A stretch of DNA of 26,524 nucleotides from a virus, in the UHGV virus genome UHGV-1483427, one strand, 5' to 3'. The notes under the pieces were generated by a model. The model saw only the letters and a program-made list of their open reading frames with translations. It did no database searches and was not told where the DNA came from. Below, in pieces: positions 56-23,292 of the stretch; the first letter of the stretch is position 1; each line of letters opens with the position of its first letter. The position numbers and the translations under genes were made by a program.

Positions 56-216
56 TTTATCAGTTCGCTCCCATCCGTACCAGTCCGCAAAATCCCCAGA
101 ATATCAAGCCTCCCGGAAACTCACAGTTCGTCATGGTTCGCTTCAGATCGTTGACAGCCGCACTCCATGACGGGTAAAAAGTGGATAAAATAATTTTACC
201 CACCGGATTTTTACCC

Positions 217-1374
217 ATGCTCACCGTTAAGCAGATTGAAGCAGCAAAGCCGAAAGAAAAACCATACCGCCTTCTCGATGGTAATGGCCTGTACCTTTAT
301 GTCCCTGTATCCGGGAAAAAGGTATGGCAGCTTCGCTACAAGATTGACGGTAAGGAAAAAATACTGACCGTAGGAAAATATCCGCTTATGACTTTGCAGG
401 AGGCAAGGGATAAAGCATGGACTGCGAGGAAAGACATCTCGGTTGGCATCGATCCGGTAAAGGCGAAAAAGGCCTCGTCTAACAACAATTCCTTTAGTGC
501 GATTTACAAGGAATGGTACGAGCACAAGAAGCAAGTCTGGTCAGTAGGCTATGCAACTGAACTTGCCAAAATGTTTGATGACGACATTTTACCCATCATC
601 GGCGGTCTTGAGATTCTGGATATTGAGCCGATGCAACTGCTGGAAGTAATCCGCAGATTTGAAGATCGCGGTGCAATGGAGCGAGCCAACAAAGCCCGCA
701 GAAGATGCGGCGAGGTTTTCCGTTACGCTATTGTCACTGGTAGGGCTAAATATAACCCGGCACCTGACCTTGCTGACGCCATGAAGGGATACCGCAAGAA
801 GAACTTCCCGTTTCTTCCTGCAGACCAGATCCCGGCATTCAACAAAGCACTGGCAACATTTTCAGGAAGTATCGTATCGCTCATTGCCACCAAGGTTTTA
901 CGCTACACAGCCCTCAGAACAAAAGAGCTTCGTTCCATGCAATGGAAGAACGTCGATTTTGAAAACAGGATTATCACTATCGACGCCAATGTGATGAAGG
1001 GACGCAAAATTCATGTGGTCCCGATGTCAGACCAGGTGGTTGAACTTCTCACTACGCTAAGCTCCATCACCAAACCAGTATCAGAGTTTGTTTTTTCCGG
1101 GCGTAACGATAAGAAGAAGCCAATCTGCGAGAACGCGGTATTGCTTGTGATCAAACAAATCGGCTATGAAGGTCTGGAAAGCGGTCACGGATTCAGGCAT
1201 GAATTCAGCACGATTATGAACGAGCACGAATGGCCTGCTGATGCTATTGAAGTGCAACTGGCACATGCCAACGGCGGATCTGTGCGCGGGATTTACAACC
1301 ATGCTCAGTATCTCGATAAGCGCAGAGAAATGATGCAGTGGTGGGCGGACTGGCTTGATGGGAAGGCTGAGTAA
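217..1374 (+). CDS. int: Tyrosine recombinase / prophage integrase (IntS/CPS-53-like, P4-type family)
   Basis: 385-aa product from ATG 217 (the track ORF begins at an upstream GTG, 181). The MLTVKQIEAAKPKEK... N-terminus and C-terminal catalytic region (R..HGFRH..Y) match my recollection of argW-associated IntS. Sits immediately 3' of the tRNA. Confidence 0.9.
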   Translation: MLTVKQIEAAKPKEKPYRLLDGNGLYLYVPVSGKKVWQLRYKIDGKEKILTVGKYPLMTLQEARDKAWTARKDISVGIDPVKAKKASSNNNSFSAIYKEWYEHKKQVWSVGYATELAKMFDDDILPIIGGLEILDIEPMQLLEVIRRFEDRGAMERANKARRRCGEVFRYAIVTGRAKYNPAPDLADAMKGYRKKNFPFLPADQIPAFNKALATFSGSIVSLIATKVLRYTALRTKELRSMQWKNVDFENRIITIDANVMKGRKIHVVPMSDQVVELLTTLSSITKPVSEFVFSGRNDKKKPICENAVLLVIKQIGYEGLESGHGFRHEFSTIMNEHEWPADAIEVQLAHANGGSVRGIYNHAQYLDKRREMMQWWADWLDGKAE

Positions 1375-2902: not shown

Positions 2903-2929
2903 AAAAAGGCGGGCGTGGACTCGCCTTTT
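2903..2929. terminator. Bidirectional intrinsic terminator between convergent oac and tailspike
   Basis: aaaaggcg / cgcctttt stem with a 10-nt loop, A/T-run on both sides; overlaps the tailspike stop codon. Confidence 0.5.
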
Positions 2930-5265
2930 CAGATTGGATAATTACTTACTCTAACATCAGCAAAACTAGTTGTTCCTGTCAAGGAAATATCCATGCGTTC
3001 ATCACAAGCAGGAGCAAGAAAAACCTCTACAGCTACACATTCTGATCTTTTAACATGATATATTGCCTGACGCTCAAGCCACGAATTATCAGATAATAAT
3101 TTTATTGCAGTATTAGATAACGAATTACCTGTAGAATCCAATTCGCGAAAAATGACCGCCGATGATATTGATGTTTCTGATAACGTCCATAGTCTTACAT
3201 AGACAGCGCTTCGTTGAGCTACTCGAAGTGTTGCCACTAATAAACTCTGTACTGATGCGGTATTCTTATCGTTAAGAGTGAATGCATAAGGCGTACCTAC
3301 AGGCTTTGTAGTTGCATCTGTTTTCTCTGGCGCAATAGATATAACAGACTGAAAAAATCTATCCTGATTAGCTAGAATATGACCAGCTATGGAACGCATC
3401 GGTAGAGGGTTAGTACTATGGACAGCATCACTTCTTCCAACACGAAAACCACCTCCTGTATTCTGGCTATTGGCAGTGATAAATACGTCTTGGTTATTGT
3501 CTACAAGCACTTCACCTGAACACGAACTAGTTATGATCTTACCTACAGAGTTAAATCTTGGTTTTATCTCTTGATTGTCAATTCCGCTAATTAGTCCAGG
3601 CACAAATTCGAATGATACACCAACACCGTTACAGCTAACAGCCGTGATATCTTCAACGTTGATGTCATACCCATTGACAATGCGTACCGCATTATTGTTT
3701 ACCCTTTCGACATAGACATTTTTAATTCGAATGTGCTGTGATTGGAAGTCTGTAGACTCAGAAGGATACGAGTAATTAGTCACGAATATACCAGCCAAGC
3801 CAGCCACACTGGTTGCTGCAGCAACATACTTTCCACCAAGAACATCAATATTCTCTCCTTGAATTTCAAGAAAATTTTTAGTTGCTTTTGATTTTCCTGT
3901 TTGAATTCCGATATTGCCAGCAAGGAATACACCACGGCGTGAACCATCCGTAGAGTGATGGCAATCGTTCATGTCGAATGTTTGGCATGCATCGATAACC
4001 CAATTTTCGCAACCTCTCTTAAAGTCATTCAATGTACGATGGCCGAAAGCAGTGTTGCCGAAACTGAAGATGTTTTTAATGGTATATGTACCGTATTCGC
4101 CAGGTGAATCAATAGAGCCATTCATACACTTAAATGCATTGAATCCAACAGCGGTAAGCATTGGGTCTGTTCCCTCTGATGAACAATACAAATAATTAAT
4201 ACCATCAATCATTCCACCATTAGTTGTGTATCCTTCCCATGCTTCATGTGGGCAGTTTTTGAAATGACATCTTAAAGCAGTAATATTGCGACCAATGGCA
4301 CCGTTATTGAAATGCCAGCAGAATGCGCGAATAATCTTCTGCGGCGCAATGTTATTTATTTCGTAACCGTCTTGGTATTGTCCATCAAAACAAATATCCT
4401 GCAGCATCGCAAAATATAGATCCTTGTCAGGGTTCTTACGGATGAACCAAGAGTAATAGCCAAAGCCATTATTCTCAACGTCTTGCTTTGTTAGTGAGAT
4501 TGGTCTGATAGTAGTACTTGACTTCCCTGCACCAATCCAATGAAACCAGTCGCCAATTTGCACACTACCACTAAACGAGATCACATCTATACCTCTAAAA
4601 TCTAGAGGAACCCTTTTATATTCTGATAATATTTGTAATTTATTTATTACCGATGCGCAGTCAACTCCGCTATGAATGTAGCGACTGCACATGATCGCAT
4701 CATTGAAATTAGAACCATCCATGACGCATAACCATTGACTATTAAGATTTGGATTTTCTGTTGGCGCTACAGTTTTCGGAAGGGAACCAAGCCATTGGTA
4801 ATAAAGTCCATCAGTGTATTTAAGGACCTGTTTTCTATTGGTAATAGTATATCCAGACGCAAAATCGCCATCAATTATTCGACTGTATTCTGATATTTCG
4901 AAATTTCCCTTTGCCCACAAGGAAAACTGATCAGGATCATACTTCAGAACATTCGGAAAATAGAACTGCTGCGCTCCATATGCATCATAAACAGCCATCG
5001 AATGACCTTGCACAGTTACAAACTTGGCAATCTGCCCGTTATATACAGGATATCCAGCAGCGTTAATGATGATTGGTTGCGATACAGGAACATGAGAGCC
5101 GTCTTCGTTCTCCACATAAACCTGGATCTGGTTTTCAGTATTTACCGGATCAGTGTCAATTTTTCCGATATAAATCTTTCCATTAGCTACGGCTTTAAAA
5201 GAACGAGCCATAGTGAAGAGTTGCGAAGGCATGCTTACCACAACATTTGCGGTGATATCTGACAT
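2929..5265 (-). CDS. Tailspike protein: P22-gp9-like head-binding N-terminal domain fused to a divergent receptor-binding/depolymerase domain
   Basis: N-terminus [42 protein letters not shown]...VLKYDPDQ matches my recollection of the P22 gp9 head-binding domain; remaining ~660 aa is Gly/Asn/Ser-rich (beta-helix-like composition) and AT-rich. Start set at ATG 5265 (RBS ggag 8 nt upstream) rather than track start 5313. Confidence 0.85.
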
Positions 5266-5386: not shown

Positions 5387-5653
5387 ATGTACAGCAAATA
5401 CGACGAGGCGCAGTTTCACTTGAGACTTCCGCATGAACTCCACGCGAAAATTAAGCAGCGTGCGAAGATGAATAACAGATCGCTGAACTCAGAGATAATT
5501 GCAGCGATTGAAGAATCGTTGACTAAACAAAGCTCTGCATCCGTTTACATTGACGATGCAGAGCGTATGGCAGAACAACAATCTGATATGGTTAAGAAAA
5601 TGGTTTTTGAAACGCTTAAGACCATGTATAGCAATAATAAAAAGGAAACATAG
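5387..5653 (+). CDS. mnt: Mnt-like ribbon-helix-helix repressor (Arc/Mnt family)
   Basis: 88 aa from ATG 5387. The NNRSLNSEIIAAIEESL (RHH) and DDAERMAEQQSDMVKKMVFETLK (C-terminal coiled coil) segments match my recollection of P22 Mnt. Divergent from tailspike, as mnt is from arc-ant-9 in P22 immI. Confidence 0.8.
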   Translation: MYSKYDEAQFHLRLPHELHAKIKQRAKMNNRSLNSEIIAAIEESLTKQSSASVYIDDAERMAEQQSDMVKKMVFETLKTMYSNNKKET

Positions 5654-5723
5654 AAATCTAGTTTCCGGATAAAATGGCATTGCCTTCATGATATCCTGTG
5701 AAAAACTAAGGAGAGTTAACCAT

Positions 5724-6209
5724 ATGAAAAAATCACTGTTAATTATCCCGCTTCTGCTGGTTGGATGCGCAAAAGTAAGTGACTATCAAGCAAGTTGCGA
5801 ACAACGCTATCAAAAGCTTAGCGATATGGCTAATTGCCTTGATGCCAGTGTGAAGAACGACTCACGCATGGCATCAGCACCAACACCTAAGCTGTATGTC
5901 CTTGCTGCAAAGATGCTCGGGCAAGGTGTCGATGAAGGCAAGATAAGTGACGCACAGGCAAGACTTGAGCTTCAGAATCTTTATGTTCAATTACAAAGCC
6001 AAGAACAAGCCCAACAAATAGCACAAAGCCAAGCATTCCAGCAGGCTTTATTGAATTATCAGGCTGTAAACACAATGCAAGCGATCGAGCAAAAAGCGCG
6101 CCAGCCTGTTATAACTCAACCTTACCCAACACGCGTTGACACATATACAAACTGCAATTCAGGGTTTGGAAATACAGTCACATGCAACAGTAGCAGTAAC
6201 ATAAGATAA
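5724..6209 (+). CDS. Predicted lipoprotein, Gln-rich, unknown function (candidate superinfection-exclusion moron)
   Basis: RBS aaggaga 10 nt upstream of ATG 5724. Signal peptide MKKSLLIIPLLLVGC with lipobox LVG|C; Q-rich central region; Cys-containing C-terminus. Occupies the sieA-equivalent position between ejection genes and mnt. Confidence 0.7.
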   Translation: MKKSLLIIPLLLVGCAKVSDYQASCEQRYQKLSDMANCLDASVKNDSRMASAPTPKLYVLAAKMLGQGVDEGKISDAQARLELQNLYVQLQSQEQAQQIAQSQAFQQALLNYQAVNTMQAIEQKARQPVITQPYPTRVDTYTNCNSGFGNTVTCNSSSNIR

Positions 6210-6299: not shown

Positions 6300-8297
6300 C
6301 TATTCTGACAACGCATCAGACTTAGCCCCCTGCGTCAGAGCGTTAATTGCCTTTTGTGCCTGCTGCATTGCTTTCTCAAAGGCTGTTGATCCGCGTGGGG
6401 TGTTTGCCATTCGGAGCATTGCATTTCTGAATGGTTCGCTCTCATAGGCGCGAGTAAGAAGTCCGTAGCTTACCGCTGCGCCAGTTGTCGCCGGGTTCAT
6501 TGCCGTCCCATACCCGATAATGAACGGGATGGTTTGCTGCCCTGTTGGTGTTGTTACTGCCGCTTTTGCAGCCTGCTGCGTGGATTGCAGGTAGTTTTTC
6601 AATCCTTTCAGATAAGCAGCGTCCTGCCCCTTAAATGTGATGCCAGTCTGGTTTTGCAGGATGTTAAGCTGTCGAAGGAACTGATCAGGGGAACCACCTG
6701 ATTTCTCCATCGCCTTTCCAATGATGCCATTGCGCATTTGCGCCCTGCCAACACGACCAACTGAGTTATACAGCGTCTTAATTTCCGATTTGTTCTTGCT
6801 GAATAGCATGTTGTTGACAACTTCCGGCGTCAGGTCGCCTTTCATGAGAACATTCTTCAGCCTGGTATTCTTTAGTTTCGCCGCTTCGTCAGCGTAGACG
6901 GCATTGGCCTGCTGATATTTACGGAGAGTATCGTTGCCAAGATTCTGACCAATGGCACCATTGATATCATCGGTCATCGCCTTGTAAACGCGCTGAATGG
7001 CAGCATCGGAACGGTTTGGTAACACTGGTCGCTCACCCTTCACGTCCATTCTGAACTGGCTGCGCAGATCGCTTAATTGCTTCAAATCCAGATTTACCGG
7101 ACCATCAGGACCAGCATTGCGAACAAGCTCATCACGATAGGACTGAAGTTTTGAAATAGTCTCGTTATCAGCAACCTTACCAAGCTTCTGCAGGTTAGAT
7201 ATTTCTGTATCAATCTGCTGAATTGCTCTTGCAGGCTGAATGTTTATTCCCGCCATAGCATTCTGAACCTGCTCCAGTCGATTTCCTGCAGCGCGACGAA
7301 TTCCTGATTTTTTCGCTTTAAGGCTGTCAATAACAACTGCCGGATCGTACTCGCCGAATTTATCAGCAAATCTCTGCACCAACTGGCTTCTCGCTTCCTG
7401 TTGCGTTGCTCTCATTCCACTTGTGCCAGCCAGAGGGATATTTTCTGCTGTAGTCTGCGCCATTTTTCCGACGCGGGAAGTTGGTTGTAACAGGTCTGTG
7501 GTGTGCAGAGGAACTCCTTCACGCTCTGAAAATCTGATAGCCTGTTGCGCTTCTGGTGCTATCGAACCACGAACACCACGATAAGCAGCACCTAATCCAC
7601 GTCCGGCAGCGTTAATAGCACCGCCAGCCAGCACACTAACGCCTAAATCGGTGGCGAGTGCTTCCGCATCATCTTTCGCACTGTTTGCAGCAAGTGATCC
7701 AACTGCGTTTTCTGCGAGAAGTCGTGTTGCCCCATGAGCAATTCGACCAGCAAGTGTTGGTGCCTGTGTTGCCGCTCTCTCAACGCCAGCAGGAGTGAGG
7801 TAAGGCAATGCTTCAGCAAATACCCTTCCCTCTGTCGTTTGTGGAGTCAACGCGCCTTGCTGAAGGCCAAAGTCCTGCTCTAATCCCTGCGTTGTTACTC
7901 GTGGCGCTGGTTGATATCTACCATCGCCAATGCCGAGTTTACCGCCAGCCCAAGCCGCCGCGCTTGTTACAGCATCTGCAACTGATGCAGGTATGTTTGC
8001 CACGTTCACGCCAGCCTGCACCAGTCCGCGACCAGTCTCTTTCACTGCTTCACCAAGATCAGACATAAATCCACTTTGCTGTGGTTGTTGCTGTGCTACT
8101 GGTTGCTGTGTATCCACTGGCTGCACAGATGGCAATGGATAGGCAGCATAGAAAGCTTGCTTAGCCTGCTCTGCATTTTCTCCGGCTTGCGGGGCCACGA
8201 CTTCATTGAAGTATTGCTCCTGAGCCTGCGCTTTTTGTTCTGGTGCTAACGCCTGATACTGTGGAGAGGCGATAACATCTTTCCATGCTTTAGCCAT
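6300..8297 (-). CDS. DNA ejection/injection protein (P22 gp16-like position)
   Basis: 665 aa, Ala/Gln/Gly-rich. Third of three consecutive ejection-protein-sized ORFs (230/451/665 aa) in P22/Sf6 order gp7-gp20-gp16. Start overlaps the upstream stop. Confidence 0.7.
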   Translation of the reverse strand: MAKAWKDVIASPQYQALAPEQKAQAQEQYFNEVVAPQAGENAEQAKQAFYAAYPLPSVQPVDTQQPVAQQQPQQSGFMSDLGEAVKETGRGLVQAGVNVANIPASVADAVTSAAAWAGGKLGIGDGRYQPAPRVTTQGLEQDFGLQQGALTPQTTEGRVFAEALPYLTPAGVERAATQAPTLAGRIAHGATRLLAENAVGSLAANSAKDDAEALATDLGVSVLAGGAINAAGRGLGAAYRGVRGSIAPEAQQAIRFSEREGVPLHTTDLLQPTSRVGKMAQTTAENIPLAGTSGMRATQQEARSQLVQRFADKFGEYDPAVVIDSLKAKKSGIRRAAGNRLEQVQNAMAGINIQPARAIQQIDTEISNLQKLGKVADNETISKLQSYRDELVRNAGPDGPVNLDLKQLSDLRSQFRMDVKGERPVLPNRSDAAIQRVYKAMTDDINGAIGQNLGNDTLRKYQQANAVYADEAAKLKNTRLKNVLMKGDLTPEVVNNMLFSKNKSEIKTLYNSVGRVGRAQMRNGIIGKAMEKSGGSPDQFLRQLNILQNQTGITFKGQDAAYLKGLKNYLQSTQQAAKAAVTTPTGQQTIPFIIGYGTAMNPATTGAAVSYGLLTRAYESEPFRNAMLRMANTPRGSTAFEKAMQQAQKAINALTQGAKSDALSE

Positions 8298-9652
8298 TAA
8301 TCACCCCATAGTGAAGAAAAGTTACTGCTGGCTGCTGGCTGTGATACCTGTGCAGGTTGAGATTGATGCCGCTGAGATTTACCAACATTAACGTTATATT
8401 GTTGGTTGTAATTGTTGGTGTATTCCTGAATCTCACGAATCGACTGTTGCATAGCCTCCGGGCTTGAATAGTCAACCTGCGGCATCCCCTGAAAATACAT
8501 CTTCGCTTCTGCAACAGTGTTAATACCACTGGCACCCATGTCCCTTGCTGCCGCCACACCCTGATTCTGCATTCTGCCCTGAATCCGTTGTGCTGAGTTA
8601 TATAACTGGCGCTGCTCTTTTCTTGTTAATCGGCTGCGAACATCAGCACCAATTGCTGGATTACCTGCACCGCCTGTCATTCCTGTCATGAAATCGAGAG
8701 CAGAAGCGTCTGCATTTGCGATCGCGTCGATATCCTTCTTCATGGCATAGTTTTGTGCTGATGCAGACGATGTTGCAGGCGCTGCGATTGAACTGGCAGG
8801 AACGCGAACCATATTCCCCTCGTTGTCGATGCCTTCGTAGAACGCATTAGCCCCAGCGCCATGAAGCTTCCCGCCGACAGTTACAGTTCTGCCATCTGAT
8901 AACTGAACTGTACGCTCATCATTCCCAGCAGTTCCTCTTGTTGACGATCGCTGCATTGCCAAATCCTGACCGCGCATCGTGATGTTCTGACCACGCGCTG
9001 TTAGTGCTTCTCCGGCCTGATTGCTGCGGATTGTCTCTGCCAGCCTGCCTCGGTCAATCTCACGACCAGCCATCTTGTCCTGAACATTAAAGTAGTCAAT
9101 CGGACCGAGAGCAGCCATCCCAAGGTGATCAACAAACTCACCAAATCCTGAAGGATTCTGCTGATACATCTGAGCAACGCTGTTAGGGTCAACACCGACG
9201 CGAGTCAGTTCCTTGGCGTTGTTTTGCAGCCATGATTGCATTGCTTCTGGAGACGATGACGCAAGGCGTGCGCCAGCCGCTAAGGTGCCGATAGAATTAC
9301 GCTGGTCTTCATCAATGAATCCCATGCCTTTACGAACGGATTCAATCTGGTCTGGATATTCAGTAGCTAACTGACGCAAAGCACCGCGATCACCAGACGC
9401 ATAAGCATTAGCGTATGCCTGCTGAAATTCTTTCTGCCGCTGAGCCTGCTTTTCCTGCTGAAACACCCCCGCAATACCTGAAAGGCCTTGCAAAGCAGTC
9501 AGCCCAACATTGTTAGCGCCTGAACGCTCAATATCATTGTTCTGCCTGATAAGCTGAAGCGTATTGCCGATGTCATTTACGTTCGGAGCGTTTGAGTTGA
9601 CACCACCGATACCAGCCAACAATCCGCCATTTGTTCCTTGCCAAGTAGCCAT
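8297..9652 (-). CDS. DNA ejection/injection protein (P22 gp20-like position)
   Basis: 451 aa, Gly/Ala/Gln-rich. Sits between the gp7-like and gp16-like ORFs in the same strand block. Confidence 0.7.
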
Positions 9653-9661
9653 GATTACCCC

Positions 9662-10354
9662 TTAAAACAACGATCCAAGCAGGCCAAGTCCGCCGCCAAT
9701 TGCCGCACCTAATCCAGTGCCAAGTCCTGGAACAATAGAGCCAAGAGCAGCGCCAGACATAGCCCCTGAAGCTCCGCCGCTAATTGCTGTCTGAAGACCT
9801 GATGGTTTATTGGCATTAGCAGCGGCAAGAGCCGCACTTTGCTGCGAAATCTGACTCATGTTGTTGGCATATGTCTGCCCGGCGTTTGCCTGACCTTGCA
9901 GTGCGCCAAGACCAATATTTGCCAGATTCTGGTAGTTGTTCATCTGACCAGACAGCCACTGCTGACCAAGAGTTGGTGCGATTGTTGCTAACTGATTACC
10001 GGTTGCAGTGGAACCCAATCCACCTGTTGCTTCCGCTGCAGCCAGACTCTGATAGCGAGCCTGACCAGCAAGATCTTTGTACTGCTGAGAGTTGTAATAC
10101 TGGTTAAGTGCCTGGCCTTGCCCCTGAAGAGAGGAAAGATTCTGCAATTGTGATACGTACTGCTGAGCGAGTGGCGTGAACGGAGCAAGGTTTTTCATGA
10201 TCGTCTGCCACTGCTGATTCTGCAGGTCTGCGGCATACTTCTGAGTTTCTGCTGCATACTTTGCGCTTTTATCGGAGCCACCTTTCCCGCCTTTTTCAGG
10301 GCACCAAGGTTCCTCGCCGCGCAGTTTTCTGCCCAGCTTAAATGCATATAACAT
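9662..10354 (-). CDS. DNA ejection/injection protein (P22 gp7-like position)
   Basis: 230 aa, Gln/Gly/Ala-rich with a Gly-rich hydrophobic C-terminus. Position and size match P22 gp7. Confidence 0.65.
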   Translation of the reverse strand: MLYAFKLGRKLRGEEPWCPEKGGKGGSDKSAKYAAETQKYAADLQNQQWQTIMKNLAPFTPLAQQYVSQLQNLSSLQGQGQALNQYYNSQQYKDLAGQARYQSLAAAEATGGLGSTATGNQLATIAPTLGQQWLSGQMNNYQNLANIGLGALQGQANAGQTYANNMSQISQQSAALAAANANKPSGLQTAISGGASGAMSGAALGSIVPGLGTGLGAAIGGGLGLLGSLF

Positions 10355-22044: not shown

Positions 22045-22512
22045 TCATCGAAGGCATTGCGTCCTGATGTATTCCTGAAGAGTTCTCAGTGCTGTTTGGT
22101 CGCGGATAATTCCGTCCCGGACACCGAGAACGTTTCGTCCAGCAACTGGAGAGAGTTCGACGGTGGCATCATTGCCCATGCCGGAGGCGCCGGAGGTTTC
22201 GGCTGAGGATGGCACAGGGCATTTTCCTTTGACGAGCACCCTGCCACCATTATCAAGCTTGCGACGAAGAGCATCATTTTCAGCTTTCGCATCAGCTAAC
22301 TCCTTCGTGTATTTAGCATCGAGTACATCAGCAGCACGCTGGCGTTGCTGCATGTCAGTAATGGTGGCGGTCGCCTGCTTCAGCTCACTGACTTTTTTAT
22401 CACGCTGTTCTTTATAGGCGATGGCGTTATCACGGTAATGATTAACAGCCCATGACAGGCAGACGATGATGCAGATAACCAGAGCGGAGATAATCGCGGT
22501 TACTCTGCTCAT
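22045..22512 (-). CDS. Rz: Spanin, inner-membrane subunit Rz (lambda-type)
   Basis: 155 aa; N-terminus [31 protein letters not shown] matches my recollection of lambda Rz; contains embedded Rz1. Confidence 0.9.
22086..22292 (-). CDS. Rz1: Spanin, outer-membrane lipoprotein subunit Rz1 (embedded in Rz, +1 frame)
   Basis: 68-aa proline-rich ORF with lipobox MVAG|C, wholly within Rz in another frame. Confidence 0.8.
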
Positions 22513-22985
22513 ACCTCAATCTCTCTGACCGTTCCGCCAGCCTCTTTGAATTTTGCAATCAGGTTGTCAGCCTTATGCTCGAACTGACCATAACCAGCCC
22601 CCGGCAGTGAAGCCCAGATATTGCTGCAACGGTCGATAGCCTGACGGATATCACCGCGATCAATCATCGGCAAAGCGCCACGCTCCTTAATCTGCTGCAG
22701 CGCAACAGCGTCCTGGCTTTTGGGAGAGAAGTCTTTCAGGCCAAGCTGCTTACGATAGGCATCCCACCAACGGGAAAGAAGCTGATAGCGCCCGGCTGCT
22801 GTTGATTTGAGTTTTGGGTTTAGCGTGACAAGTTTGCGAGGGTGATCGGAGTAATCGGTAAATAGCTCTCCGCCTACAATGACGTCATAACCATGATTTC
22901 TGGTTTTCTGACGTCCATTATCAGTTCCCTCTGACCACGCCAGCATATCGAGGAACGCCTTACGTTGATTATTGATTTCCACCAT
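22509..22985 (-). CDS. R: Endolysin R (lambda-type lytic transglycosylase)
   Basis: 158 aa; [49 protein letters not shown]... appears near-identical to lambda R as I recall it. Confidence 0.95.
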
Positions 22986-23292
22986 CTTCTACTCCGGCTT
23001 TTTTAGCAGCGAAGCGTTTGATAAGCGAACCAATCGAGTCAGTACCGATGTAGCCGATGAACACGCTCGTTATATAAGCGAGATTGCTACTTAGTCCTGC
23101 GAAGTCGAGAAGGTCACGAATGAACCAGGCGATAATGGCGCACATCGTTGCGTCGATTACTGTTTTTGTAAACGCACCGCCATTATATCTGCCGCGAAGG
23201 TACGCCATTGCAAACGCAAGGATTGCCCCGATGCCTTGTTCCTTTGCCGCGAGAATGGCGGCTAACAGGTCATGTTTTTCTGGCATCTTCAT
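22969..23292 (-). CDS. S: Holin/antiholin S (lambda S107/S105 dual-start)
   Basis: 107 aa; [39 protein letters not shown]... appears near-identical to lambda S as I recall it, including the Met1-Lys2-Met3 dual start. Confidence 0.95.

Follow-up and report, generated by a model that had tools for sequence, protein, structure and literature searches.

Which gene stands in for the superinfection-exclusion gene sieA when a prophage related to phage P22 does not carry it? The question is raised by the virus genome UHGV-1483427, a stretch of 26,524 nucleotides that we shall call the window, and which is a P22-like (Lederbergvirus-type) Escherichia coli prophage; the features described here make up its left arm. 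Between a gene of the mnt type and a gene of the gene 16 type, the window carries a gene for a lipoprotein precursor (5724..6209, + strand, 161 codons followed by a stop codon), recognized from its open reading frame (ORF), from a PHROG match and from its homologs. An initial annotation, made from the sequence alone, had seen there a glutamine-rich secreted lipoprotein at the position equivalent to that of sieA, and had proposed it as a candidate superinfection-exclusion or receptor-masking factor.

An alternative occupant of the sieA slot

The gene order in P22 is 16, sieA, orf59a, mnt, arc, ant, 9; the late operon runs in the opposite direction to both sieA and mnt. The lipoprotein gene of the window likewise lies between mnt and gene 16, at the position of P22 sieA, co-oriented with mnt and opposite to the tailspike gene, gene 16, gene 20 and gene 7, as the initial annotation had it. 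This placement was further strengthened by comparison with other loci carrying the gene, 85 of which were classified with a protein panel. Where the arrangement is mnt(P22)-orf59a-lipoprotein gene (L039, L068, L085, L089, L094 and others), identity to P22 DNA is 91-98% over a stretch that takes in mnt, orf59a, the terminator annotated for mnt and the promoter annotated for sieA (BK000583 13861-13891) and reaches as far as the sequence AAGGAG. The homology ends 7 nt before the start of sieA and 12 nt before the ATG of the lipoprotein gene; beyond this point the lipoprotein ORF takes the place of that of sieA. The P22 junction reads ...TTGGTACGTTTCCAATGTTAACTTTTTTCATGGTATCCTGCACAAAACTAAGGAG|GTTGGTGTG (sieA), and locus L089 has the P22 sequence with one substitution, followed by |AGTTAATTATATG (lipoprotein).

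Leader sequences were counted over 83 usable loci. The whole 31-mer of the sieA promoter (at most 3 mismatches) is found in 15 of them, where the lipoprotein ORF stands behind both the annotated promoter and the leader of P22 sieA, and the leader 14-mer TTCATGATATCCTG (at most 2 mismatches) in 60, the window included. The window itself keeps only the promoter-proximal leader, as a 29-bp remnant, CTTCATGATATCCTGTGAAAAACTAAGGA (5684..5712, +), 86% identical by blastn to the segment of P22 BK000583 that separates the annotated sieA promoter from the sieA start. This remnant holds a TGnTATCCT motif resembling an extended -10 element; the promoter and terminator scan gave no site above threshold either upstream of the lipoprotein gene, in the interval after mnt, or downstream, so that transcription in the window may come from mnt read-through or from an unrecognised promoter. 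The Shine-Dalgarno sequence AAGGAG (5708..5713, +), 10 nt before the ATG, is the same as that of P22 sieA and is kept in 75 of the 83 loci; it is the strong ribosome-binding site that had been noticed at the outset. An alternative in-frame ATG at 5688 would add 12 residues to the protein. We nevertheless place the start at 5724, because this extension meets stop codons, or has no ATG, in homologs with unrelated upstream DNA (locus L014 from strain HUSEC2011, locus L002 from Proteus phage Brookers) and because the RefSeq annotation of the gene is 486 nt long. On the mnt side, an inverted repeat GGAAAC-N11-GTTTCC (5645-5667) spans the stop codon of mnt, with no U-tract, and could serve between the two genes as a weak attenuator or a site of processing. 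On the other side, the spacer that leads to gene 16 folds no better than its shuffles (z=0.59).

Does SieA persist anywhere beside the lipoprotein? Type A SieA is present in 41 phage records and the lipoprotein in five (Gally, vB_EcoP-720R6, Salmonella VSe13, Salmonella 'MS2 LVA' and Proteus Brookers), and none has both. The motif FxRYPxEAxxFNK, which Leavitt et al. (2024, PMC10883804) report to be conserved across types A, B and C of SieA, occurs in none of the six frames, either in the 85 loci or in the window as a whole, the P22 control being scored by the same test, and tblastn with P22 SieA gave no match in the window or in loci L001, L002, L014 and L015. The two genes are mutually exclusive in the loci examined, and the view of the lipoprotein gene as an alternative occupant of the sieA slot is firmly supported. 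That it would be a different solution at the same locus, as was surmised from the window alone, agrees with what was found: no sequence match to SieA, no SieA motif and no transmembrane architecture.

A fixed slot in a variable region

Villafane et al. (2008, PMC2629481) gave the name 'ant moron' to the region between genes 16 and 9, which by their account is in rapid flux; the prophage of E. coli B7A, which was part of that comparison, carries the lipoprotein gene. Within this flux, the gene converges in all 85 loci on the 3′ end of gene 16, of which there are at least three types less than about 30% alike (a 665-aa and a 614-aa form among them). The mnt gene, also of at least three types, is upstream and co-oriented in all but a few loci; arc and ant may be present or missing, and the tailspikes differ. 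Orthologs occupy the same slot with 61-73% identity in Morganella, Yersinia and Serratia, and with 55% in Proteus phage Brookers. A Morganella morganii prophage (L105 3955-8676) offers a minimal 'ant moron', with the lipoprotein gene alone between tailspike and gene 16; as there is no mnt there, the gene must have its own promoter in the 108-bp spacer.

The gene can also be missing. In 'empty' variants mnt abuts gene 16, and 609 bp with the lipoprotein gene are replaced by 46 bp; many P22-like phages are entirely without it. Judged by megablast break-points, the mobile unit extends from about 5685-5723 to about 6199-6209, which amounts to the ORF with a leader of at most about 40 bp. We are dealing with a dispensable moron gene, present or absent among otherwise syntenic phages, with a GC content of 43%, against about 50% in the ejection genes.

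Other genes may be inserted between mnt and the lipoprotein gene: a homolog of P22 orf59a, a gene for a 104-aa protein with a Sec signal, or a second lipoprotein gene. The 104-aa protein, with its Sec-type signal and no Pfam match, is encoded in the prophage of HUSEC2011 (O104:H4; L014 5668-5982, +). The second lipoprotein gene, GALLYPH_14/LF82_139 (L001 4447-4866, -; MKRIIGVVAGAILLSGC...), has a weak PEGA-domain match and lies on the opposite strand; genes of its type are found between mnt and the Gln-rich lipoprotein gene in about 11 of the 85 loci, and the window has none. The 'ant morons' of E. coli seem to accumulate small envelope-targeted proteins.

A conserved family

The product of the gene matches phrog_6067, a family annotated without function, from end to end (E=1.6e-110). 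A search of 5.8 billion proteins gave 94 clusters, whose named members are all from Enterobacterales and nearly all annotated 'hypothetical': Escherichia, Citrobacter, Serratia, Klebsiella aerogenes, Cronobacter, Yersinia, Pectobacterium, Morganella, Providencia, Tatumella and Symbiopectobacterium. The gene has spread to at least 10 genera of this order, in the same slot and with 50-87% identity across genera. It is carried by 186 of 5426 complete E. coli genomes (about 3%), the gene 7-type marker of P22-like prophages being present in 1240, and its carriers include pathogenic lineages such as adherent-invasive E. coli (AIEC) LF82 and the O104:H4 outbreak strain HUSEC2011. Selection was analysed on 84 copies collected from IMG/VR and genome records: all 84 have an intact 483-nt coding sequence, in 55 nucleotide alleles and 30 protein variants, and the median pairwise ratio of nonsynonymous to synonymous substitution rates (dN/dS) is 0.052 over 1408 pairs. 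It is firmly supported that this is a real gene under purifying selection.

The homology and structure searches that the initial annotation had proposed as a check found no Pfam, NCBIfam, PADLOC or PDB relative beyond a signal-peptide match. Pfam gave no family at E<=0.1 for the lipoprotein, Lambda_Bor and TraT included, and the PADLOC defence models none at E<=1; for the lipoprotein together with 10 distant relatives, NCBIfam, as well as Pfam and PADLOC, returned nothing above cut-off. Sequence and profile searches of the PDB gave only a match to the signal peptide of Llp. Weak matches to GspK, RcsF, TraV and immunity proteins of the type VI secretion system (T6SS), resting on the signal peptide or on composition, were set aside. 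In the literature, accessions, locus tags and the PHROG identifier returned nothing, and we found no paper naming or testing the lipoprotein. The family is uncharacterised and, at most, a new variation on the prophage envelope proteins found at exclusion loci.

The predicted protein

The N-terminus, MKKSLLIIPLLLVG|C, has lysines at positions 2 and 3, a 10-residue hydrophobic run (SLLIIPLLLV) and a lipobox L-V-G-C ending at Cys15. A signal peptide (residues 1-14) and the predicted site of lipid modification, Cys15 (5724..5768, +), followed by Ala at +2 and Lys at +3, are assigned by pattern match: the test asked for a positive n-region, a hydrophobic h-region, a lipobox [LVI][ASTVI][GAS]C and a cysteine at position 15-35, and MKKSLLIIPLLLVGC matches this PROSITE-type pattern. 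The lipobox cysteine is invariant in alignments of 29 close and 36 diverse family members. Sorting of lipoproteins by the Lol system of E. coli is governed by the residue at +2, which decides between inner and outer membrane, aspartate acting as the Lol-avoidance signal. As Asp is absent from this position, which is Ala here, sorting to the outer membrane is predicted; none of the 128 family members with a detectable lipobox has Asp there. The protein is thus predicted to be anchored in the outer membrane and to face the periplasm, a better wording than 'secreted'.

Cys15, C25, C38, C144 and C154 are invariant in an alignment of 36 diverse relatives, and four invariant cysteines in an exported protein suggest two disulfides. 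The mature protein (146 residues) contains 21 Gln, and residues 90-125 are 33% Gln, which bears out the description as glutamine-rich. The AlphaFold2 model, built with a diverse alignment, has a mean predicted local distance difference test score (pLDDT) of 89.3 and a predicted template modelling score of 0.60. In it, four short helices (18-70) pack onto the beginning of a helix of 51 residues (76-126), whose distal end, rich in Gln and Ala, projects; a beta-hairpin (139-159) comes next. The helical head domain (residues 16-95; 5769..6008, +), delimited from alignments and modelled with a pLDDT of 95-98, holds the invariant C25 and C38. The Gln/Ala-rich stretch of the long helix (residues 96-126; 6009..6101, +) is gapped in the alignment of distant relatives, its length varying across the superfamily. 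The C-terminal hairpin (residues 139-159; 6138..6200, +), with modelled strands at 139-146 and 152-159, carries the invariant C144 and C154. The heptad register of helix 76-126 is weak, and we make no claim of a coiled coil. The sole hydrophobic segment is the cleavable signal peptide, and the remainder is modelled as a soluble helical domain with its hairpin.

The head is the part common to a wider superfamily. When 1.84 billion representatives were searched with a profile, 252 clusters (50% identity) came out, 97 with E<=1e-10, and the matches covered roughly positions 1-100. Most members, lipoproteins 120-140 aa long, combine this head with a shorter linker and, again, the hairpin motif T-x-C-x3-G-x4-C; the 10 distant relatives scanned belong to no Pfam or NCBIfam family, and this superfamily of small five-Cys lipoproteins (252 clusters) could be defined as a new domain family. 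Cluster look-ups showed the distant relatives to be almost all metagenomic and unnamed, and a profile-based homolog search added few named ones. A scan of genome contigs with a sub-alignment gave only two loci, and a scan of viral contigs for the distant subgroup gave none. In the mobile contexts, five in number, the genes lie near small terminase, a polyvalent protein and MmeI; near integrase with HNH; near a giant ddrB-ParB protein; near integrase with DnaB; and on an island carrying DUF551 and a fragment of a transposase. Two further contexts were unclear, and no conserved partner gene emerged across those examined. All this suggests that the head domain has some general envelope-related activity, repeatedly carried by mobile elements. 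A chromosomal relative in Pectobacterium peruviense (L020/L021 8001-8411), lacking the C-terminal Cys hairpin, adjoins a gene resembling holE, for the theta subunit of DNA polymerase III; theta-like genes are also found beside the tailspike region in Proteus phage Brookers (L002 2513-2806) and in the Morganella prophage (L105 1295-1597).

Expression in lysogens

Is the gene expressed when the prophage is at rest? Its ortholog LF82_138 (GALLYPH_13), in the prophage Gally of AIEC LF82, encodes a protein 97.5% identical to that of the window, and strand-specific RNA-seq of the LF82(Gally) lysogen has been published (PMC9928086, S1 and S4 tables). Expressed as log2(fpkm+5), fpkm being fragments per kilobase per million, the values for two replicates are 6.29 / 5.96 in stationary phase in lysogeny broth (LB), 7.87 / 8.15 and 8.02 / 8.22 in the in vitro samples B1 and B6, and 10.29 / 10.30 and 8.70 / 8.54 in macrophages at 1 h and 6 h. 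The adjoining gene 16 stays at 3.6-4.2 in all five conditions (PMC9928086). In LB, LF82_138 is 4.5-fold over the prophage median (70.2 vs 15.6; same data), and it is induced relative to LB in Dulbecco's modified Eagle medium (DMEM) and in macrophages (log2 fold change 2.55, q=4.7e-27; about 16-fold at 1 h; PMC9928086). The second lipoprotein gene of Gally, LF82_139, reaches 9.4-11.0 outside LB, above LF82_138, against 4.8-6.2 in LB. The expectation that the lipoprotein gene is lysogen-expressed is supported for this 97.5%-identical ortholog, with the caveat, when carrying the result over to the window, that the region upstream of the gene in Gally differs from that of the window.

Possible functions

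We may now ask what the protein does. The reading that we favour, with a probability of roughly 0.4, is superinfection exclusion exerted at the level of the envelope. It is drawn from position and location: the swap behind the expression signals of sieA, the mutual exclusion with sieA, the predicted envelope location, and the precedents of SieA on the one hand and of Llp and Cor on the other. The scenario would run as follows. Transcribed in the lysogen from a moron gene of P22-like prophages, the product would be exported and lipidated at Cys15. As it has no Lol-avoidance signal, its destination would be the outer membrane, in the inner leaflet. Facing the periplasm would be the helical head with its disulfide bonds, the long helix rich in Gln and the Cys hairpin at the C-terminus, and these would hinder DNA delivery by incoming phages from the outer-membrane/periplasmic side. 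Speculatively, the target may be a secondary protein receptor or the trans-envelope conduit made by gp7, gp20 and gp16, in particular its gp7/gp20 part. SieA belongs to the inner membrane and has three to four transmembrane helices; for the lipoprotein the outer membrane is predicted, and its level of action would accordingly be another one.

Several observations weigh against this reading. No phenotype is on record for the lipoprotein or any of its relatives, and no sequence or fold relationship to a known exclusion protein was found. The scan detected in the window neither a promoter nor a terminator belonging to the gene itself. Gally was reported to be without morons, LF82_138 falling just under the 5-fold cut-off (78.1; PMC9928086). 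The genes of 'ant morons' 'have non-identical functions' (Villafane et al., PMC2629481), and moron slots can hold functionally unrelated cargo. Finally, distant members of the superfamily sit among housekeeping genes in four chromosomal contexts and on non-P22 mobile elements in five, and the presence of chromosomal genes in non-phage contexts weakens the case for a mechanism specific to P22-type phages.

The closest competitor to exclusion, itself doubtful, is that the gene is a lysogenic-conversion factor of the kind of Bor or TraT, giving the host a benefit unrelated to phage, such as envelope robustness, resistance to serum or complement, or some interaction with host cells. A predicted outer-membrane lipoprotein expressed in the lysogen, carried by AIEC LF82 and by O104:H4 HUSEC2011, induced in DMEM and in macrophages, and belonging to a superfamily also represented by chromosomal genes, would fit such a role. 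Yet there is no Pfam match to Lambda_Bor, TraT or any other family, and deletion of the whole of Gally left the survival of LF82 in THP-1 macrophages unchanged (PMC9928086). The induction in macrophages is not specific to LF82_138 either, since the five rightmost genes of Gally, tailspike included, all rise there. A host benefit also leaves the exact swap with sieA unexplained.

A sharper form of the exclusion reading is rather unlikely. It would have a superfamily not described before, defined by a helical head, a variable stalk helix and a disulfide hairpin, recruited by P22-like phages as a non-homologous replacement of SieA and blocking either the assembly or the working of the gp7/gp20/gp16 podovirus conduit from the outer-membrane/periplasmic side. 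Were it true, this would be the first inhibitor of the phage ejection-protein channel acting at that level.

Two further proposals seem improbable to the same degree. One would make the protein an orphan periplasmic immunity protein, giving protection from a toxin aimed at the envelope (a T6SS effector, a colicin or a bacteriocin) and carried as prophage cargo. The other would place the role of the gene in the lytic cycle, either through early synthesis of a protein that keeps progeny from being lost to the debris of lysed cells, as with T5 Llp, or through transcription of the gene modulating late-operon read-through into the tailspike gene. The gene is indeed antisense in the path of late transcription, between gene 16 and the tailspike gene, and Llp is a precedent for a phage lipoprotein that protects progeny. 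However, the dN/dS of 0.052 and the invariant lipobox and cysteines argue that the protein, and not transcription alone, is what matters; the gene is expressed in uninduced lysogens while the structural genes are silent, and the many P22-like phages that do without it count against a lytic role as well. As for a non-functional hitchhiker or mis-called ORF, to which the want of a known function and the level of LF82_138 in LB, under the published moron cut-off, could have lent some credit, it is effectively refuted by the 84 intact copies with their 55 alleles and low dN/dS, by conservation across genera in one and the same slot, by transcription and by a model with a pLDDT of 89.

Crossing of the envelope by the P22-type conduit is still poorly understood and, to our knowledge, SieA is its only characterised inhibitor. 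If the lipoprotein does act in exclusion, it would provide an independent probe of the outer-membrane/periplasmic part of DNA delivery and enlarge the exclusion repertoire by a new family; as about 3% of the complete E. coli genomes and at least 10 genera carry it, it could affect the host range of phages used for therapy or typing. If it does not, we are still left with an uncharacterised, conserved, lysogen-expressed and predicted envelope protein outside any Pfam family.

The surrounding prophage

The window annotation places an integrase gene at 181-1374 (+). Between it and the tailspike gene stands an Acyl_transf_3 gene (1691-2869, +) of about 30% GC, probably a lysogenic conversion gene of the O-antigen acetylase type; the succession integrase, Acyl_transf_3 and tailspike is also found in EH031 and HUSEC2011. 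The tailspike gene (2929..5265, -), identified by the Pfam domain Head_binding, is the other border of the 'ant moron'; its ORF reaches 5313, upstream of the likely start, with Head_binding beginning at residue 17 of the ORF. Directly upstream of the lipoprotein gene and co-oriented with it, the mnt-type repressor gene (5387..5653, +) matches Pfam Arc and Repressor_Mnt, and its product is 47% identical to P22 Mnt; here too the ORF is open from further upstream (5354), homology to Mnt starting at about M12. The gene 16-type ejection protein gene (6300..8297, -), convergent with the lipoprotein gene, is assigned by synteny with Gally and P22. Close homologs of its product are called 'lytic transglycosylase domain-containing' in RefSeq, and the Serratia counterpart matches Pfam SLT; in the window protein Pfam gave no SLT domain at E<=0.1. 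Gene 20 (Inj_translocase, 8297-9652, -) and gene 7 (P22_gp7, 9662-10354, -) follow in that order. The ORFs of the lysis cassette, to which this role is given from position and size, lie far away, at about 22045-23292; this distance and the lack of a Pfam match rule out an Rz1 o-spanin as the identity of the lipoprotein.

Comparison with known systems

As a variable gene between genes 16 and 9, the lipoprotein gene resembles the other genes of the 'ant moron' (PMC2629481). It differs from them in that most were called unique, whereas it is widespread, being found in 186 genomes of E. coli and in 10 genera or more, and belongs to a larger superfamily.

Lambda Bor/Iss and TraT are outer-membrane lipoproteins of prophages and plasmids, acting in serum resistance or surface exclusion. 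Like them, the protein discussed here is a lipoprotein of a mobile element, expressed in the carrier state and predicted at the outer membrane; unlike them, it has a different predicted fold and does not match their Pfam families.

Llp and Cor are exclusion lipoproteins: Llp of T5 and Cor of phi80, N15 and HK022 inactivate FhuA. They share with the present lipoprotein a small size, a phage origin, a conserved cysteine and a location at the outer membrane, which for the latter is a prediction. The resemblance in sequence stops at the signal peptide, the matches to Cor (phrog_1119, E=0.035) and to Llp (PDB 8a60_B, E=0.097) being restricted to residues 1-31. Furthermore, the lipoprotein is twice as large and, in its model, mainly helical, and the primary receptor of the phages that carry it is the O-antigen, not FhuA. 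A block to entry from the periplasmic side of the outer membrane, in the manner of Llp and Cor, is plausible by analogy.

It is with P22 SieA that the comparison is most telling. SieA blocks DNA injection by P22-type phages through gp16 and gp20 (PMC10883804). Exclusion is demonstrated for SieA and the lipoprotein is a candidate only; the two have no similarity in sequence, and the lipoprotein is predicted to be cleaved, lipidated and located at the outer membrane, with a soluble domain. They nevertheless share the slot between gene 16 and mnt or gene 9, an orientation opposite to the late operon, almost the same size (161 aa against 162-164 aa) and, in 15 loci, promoter, leader and Shine-Dalgarno sequence; both are prophage-expressed proteins of the envelope, a location that is predicted in the case of the lipoprotein. 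The lists of genera that carry sieA-like genes (PMC10883804) and the lipoprotein gene are almost equal. By analogy with the gene that it replaces, the lipoprotein is plausibly a good candidate for a new phage-exclusion factor.

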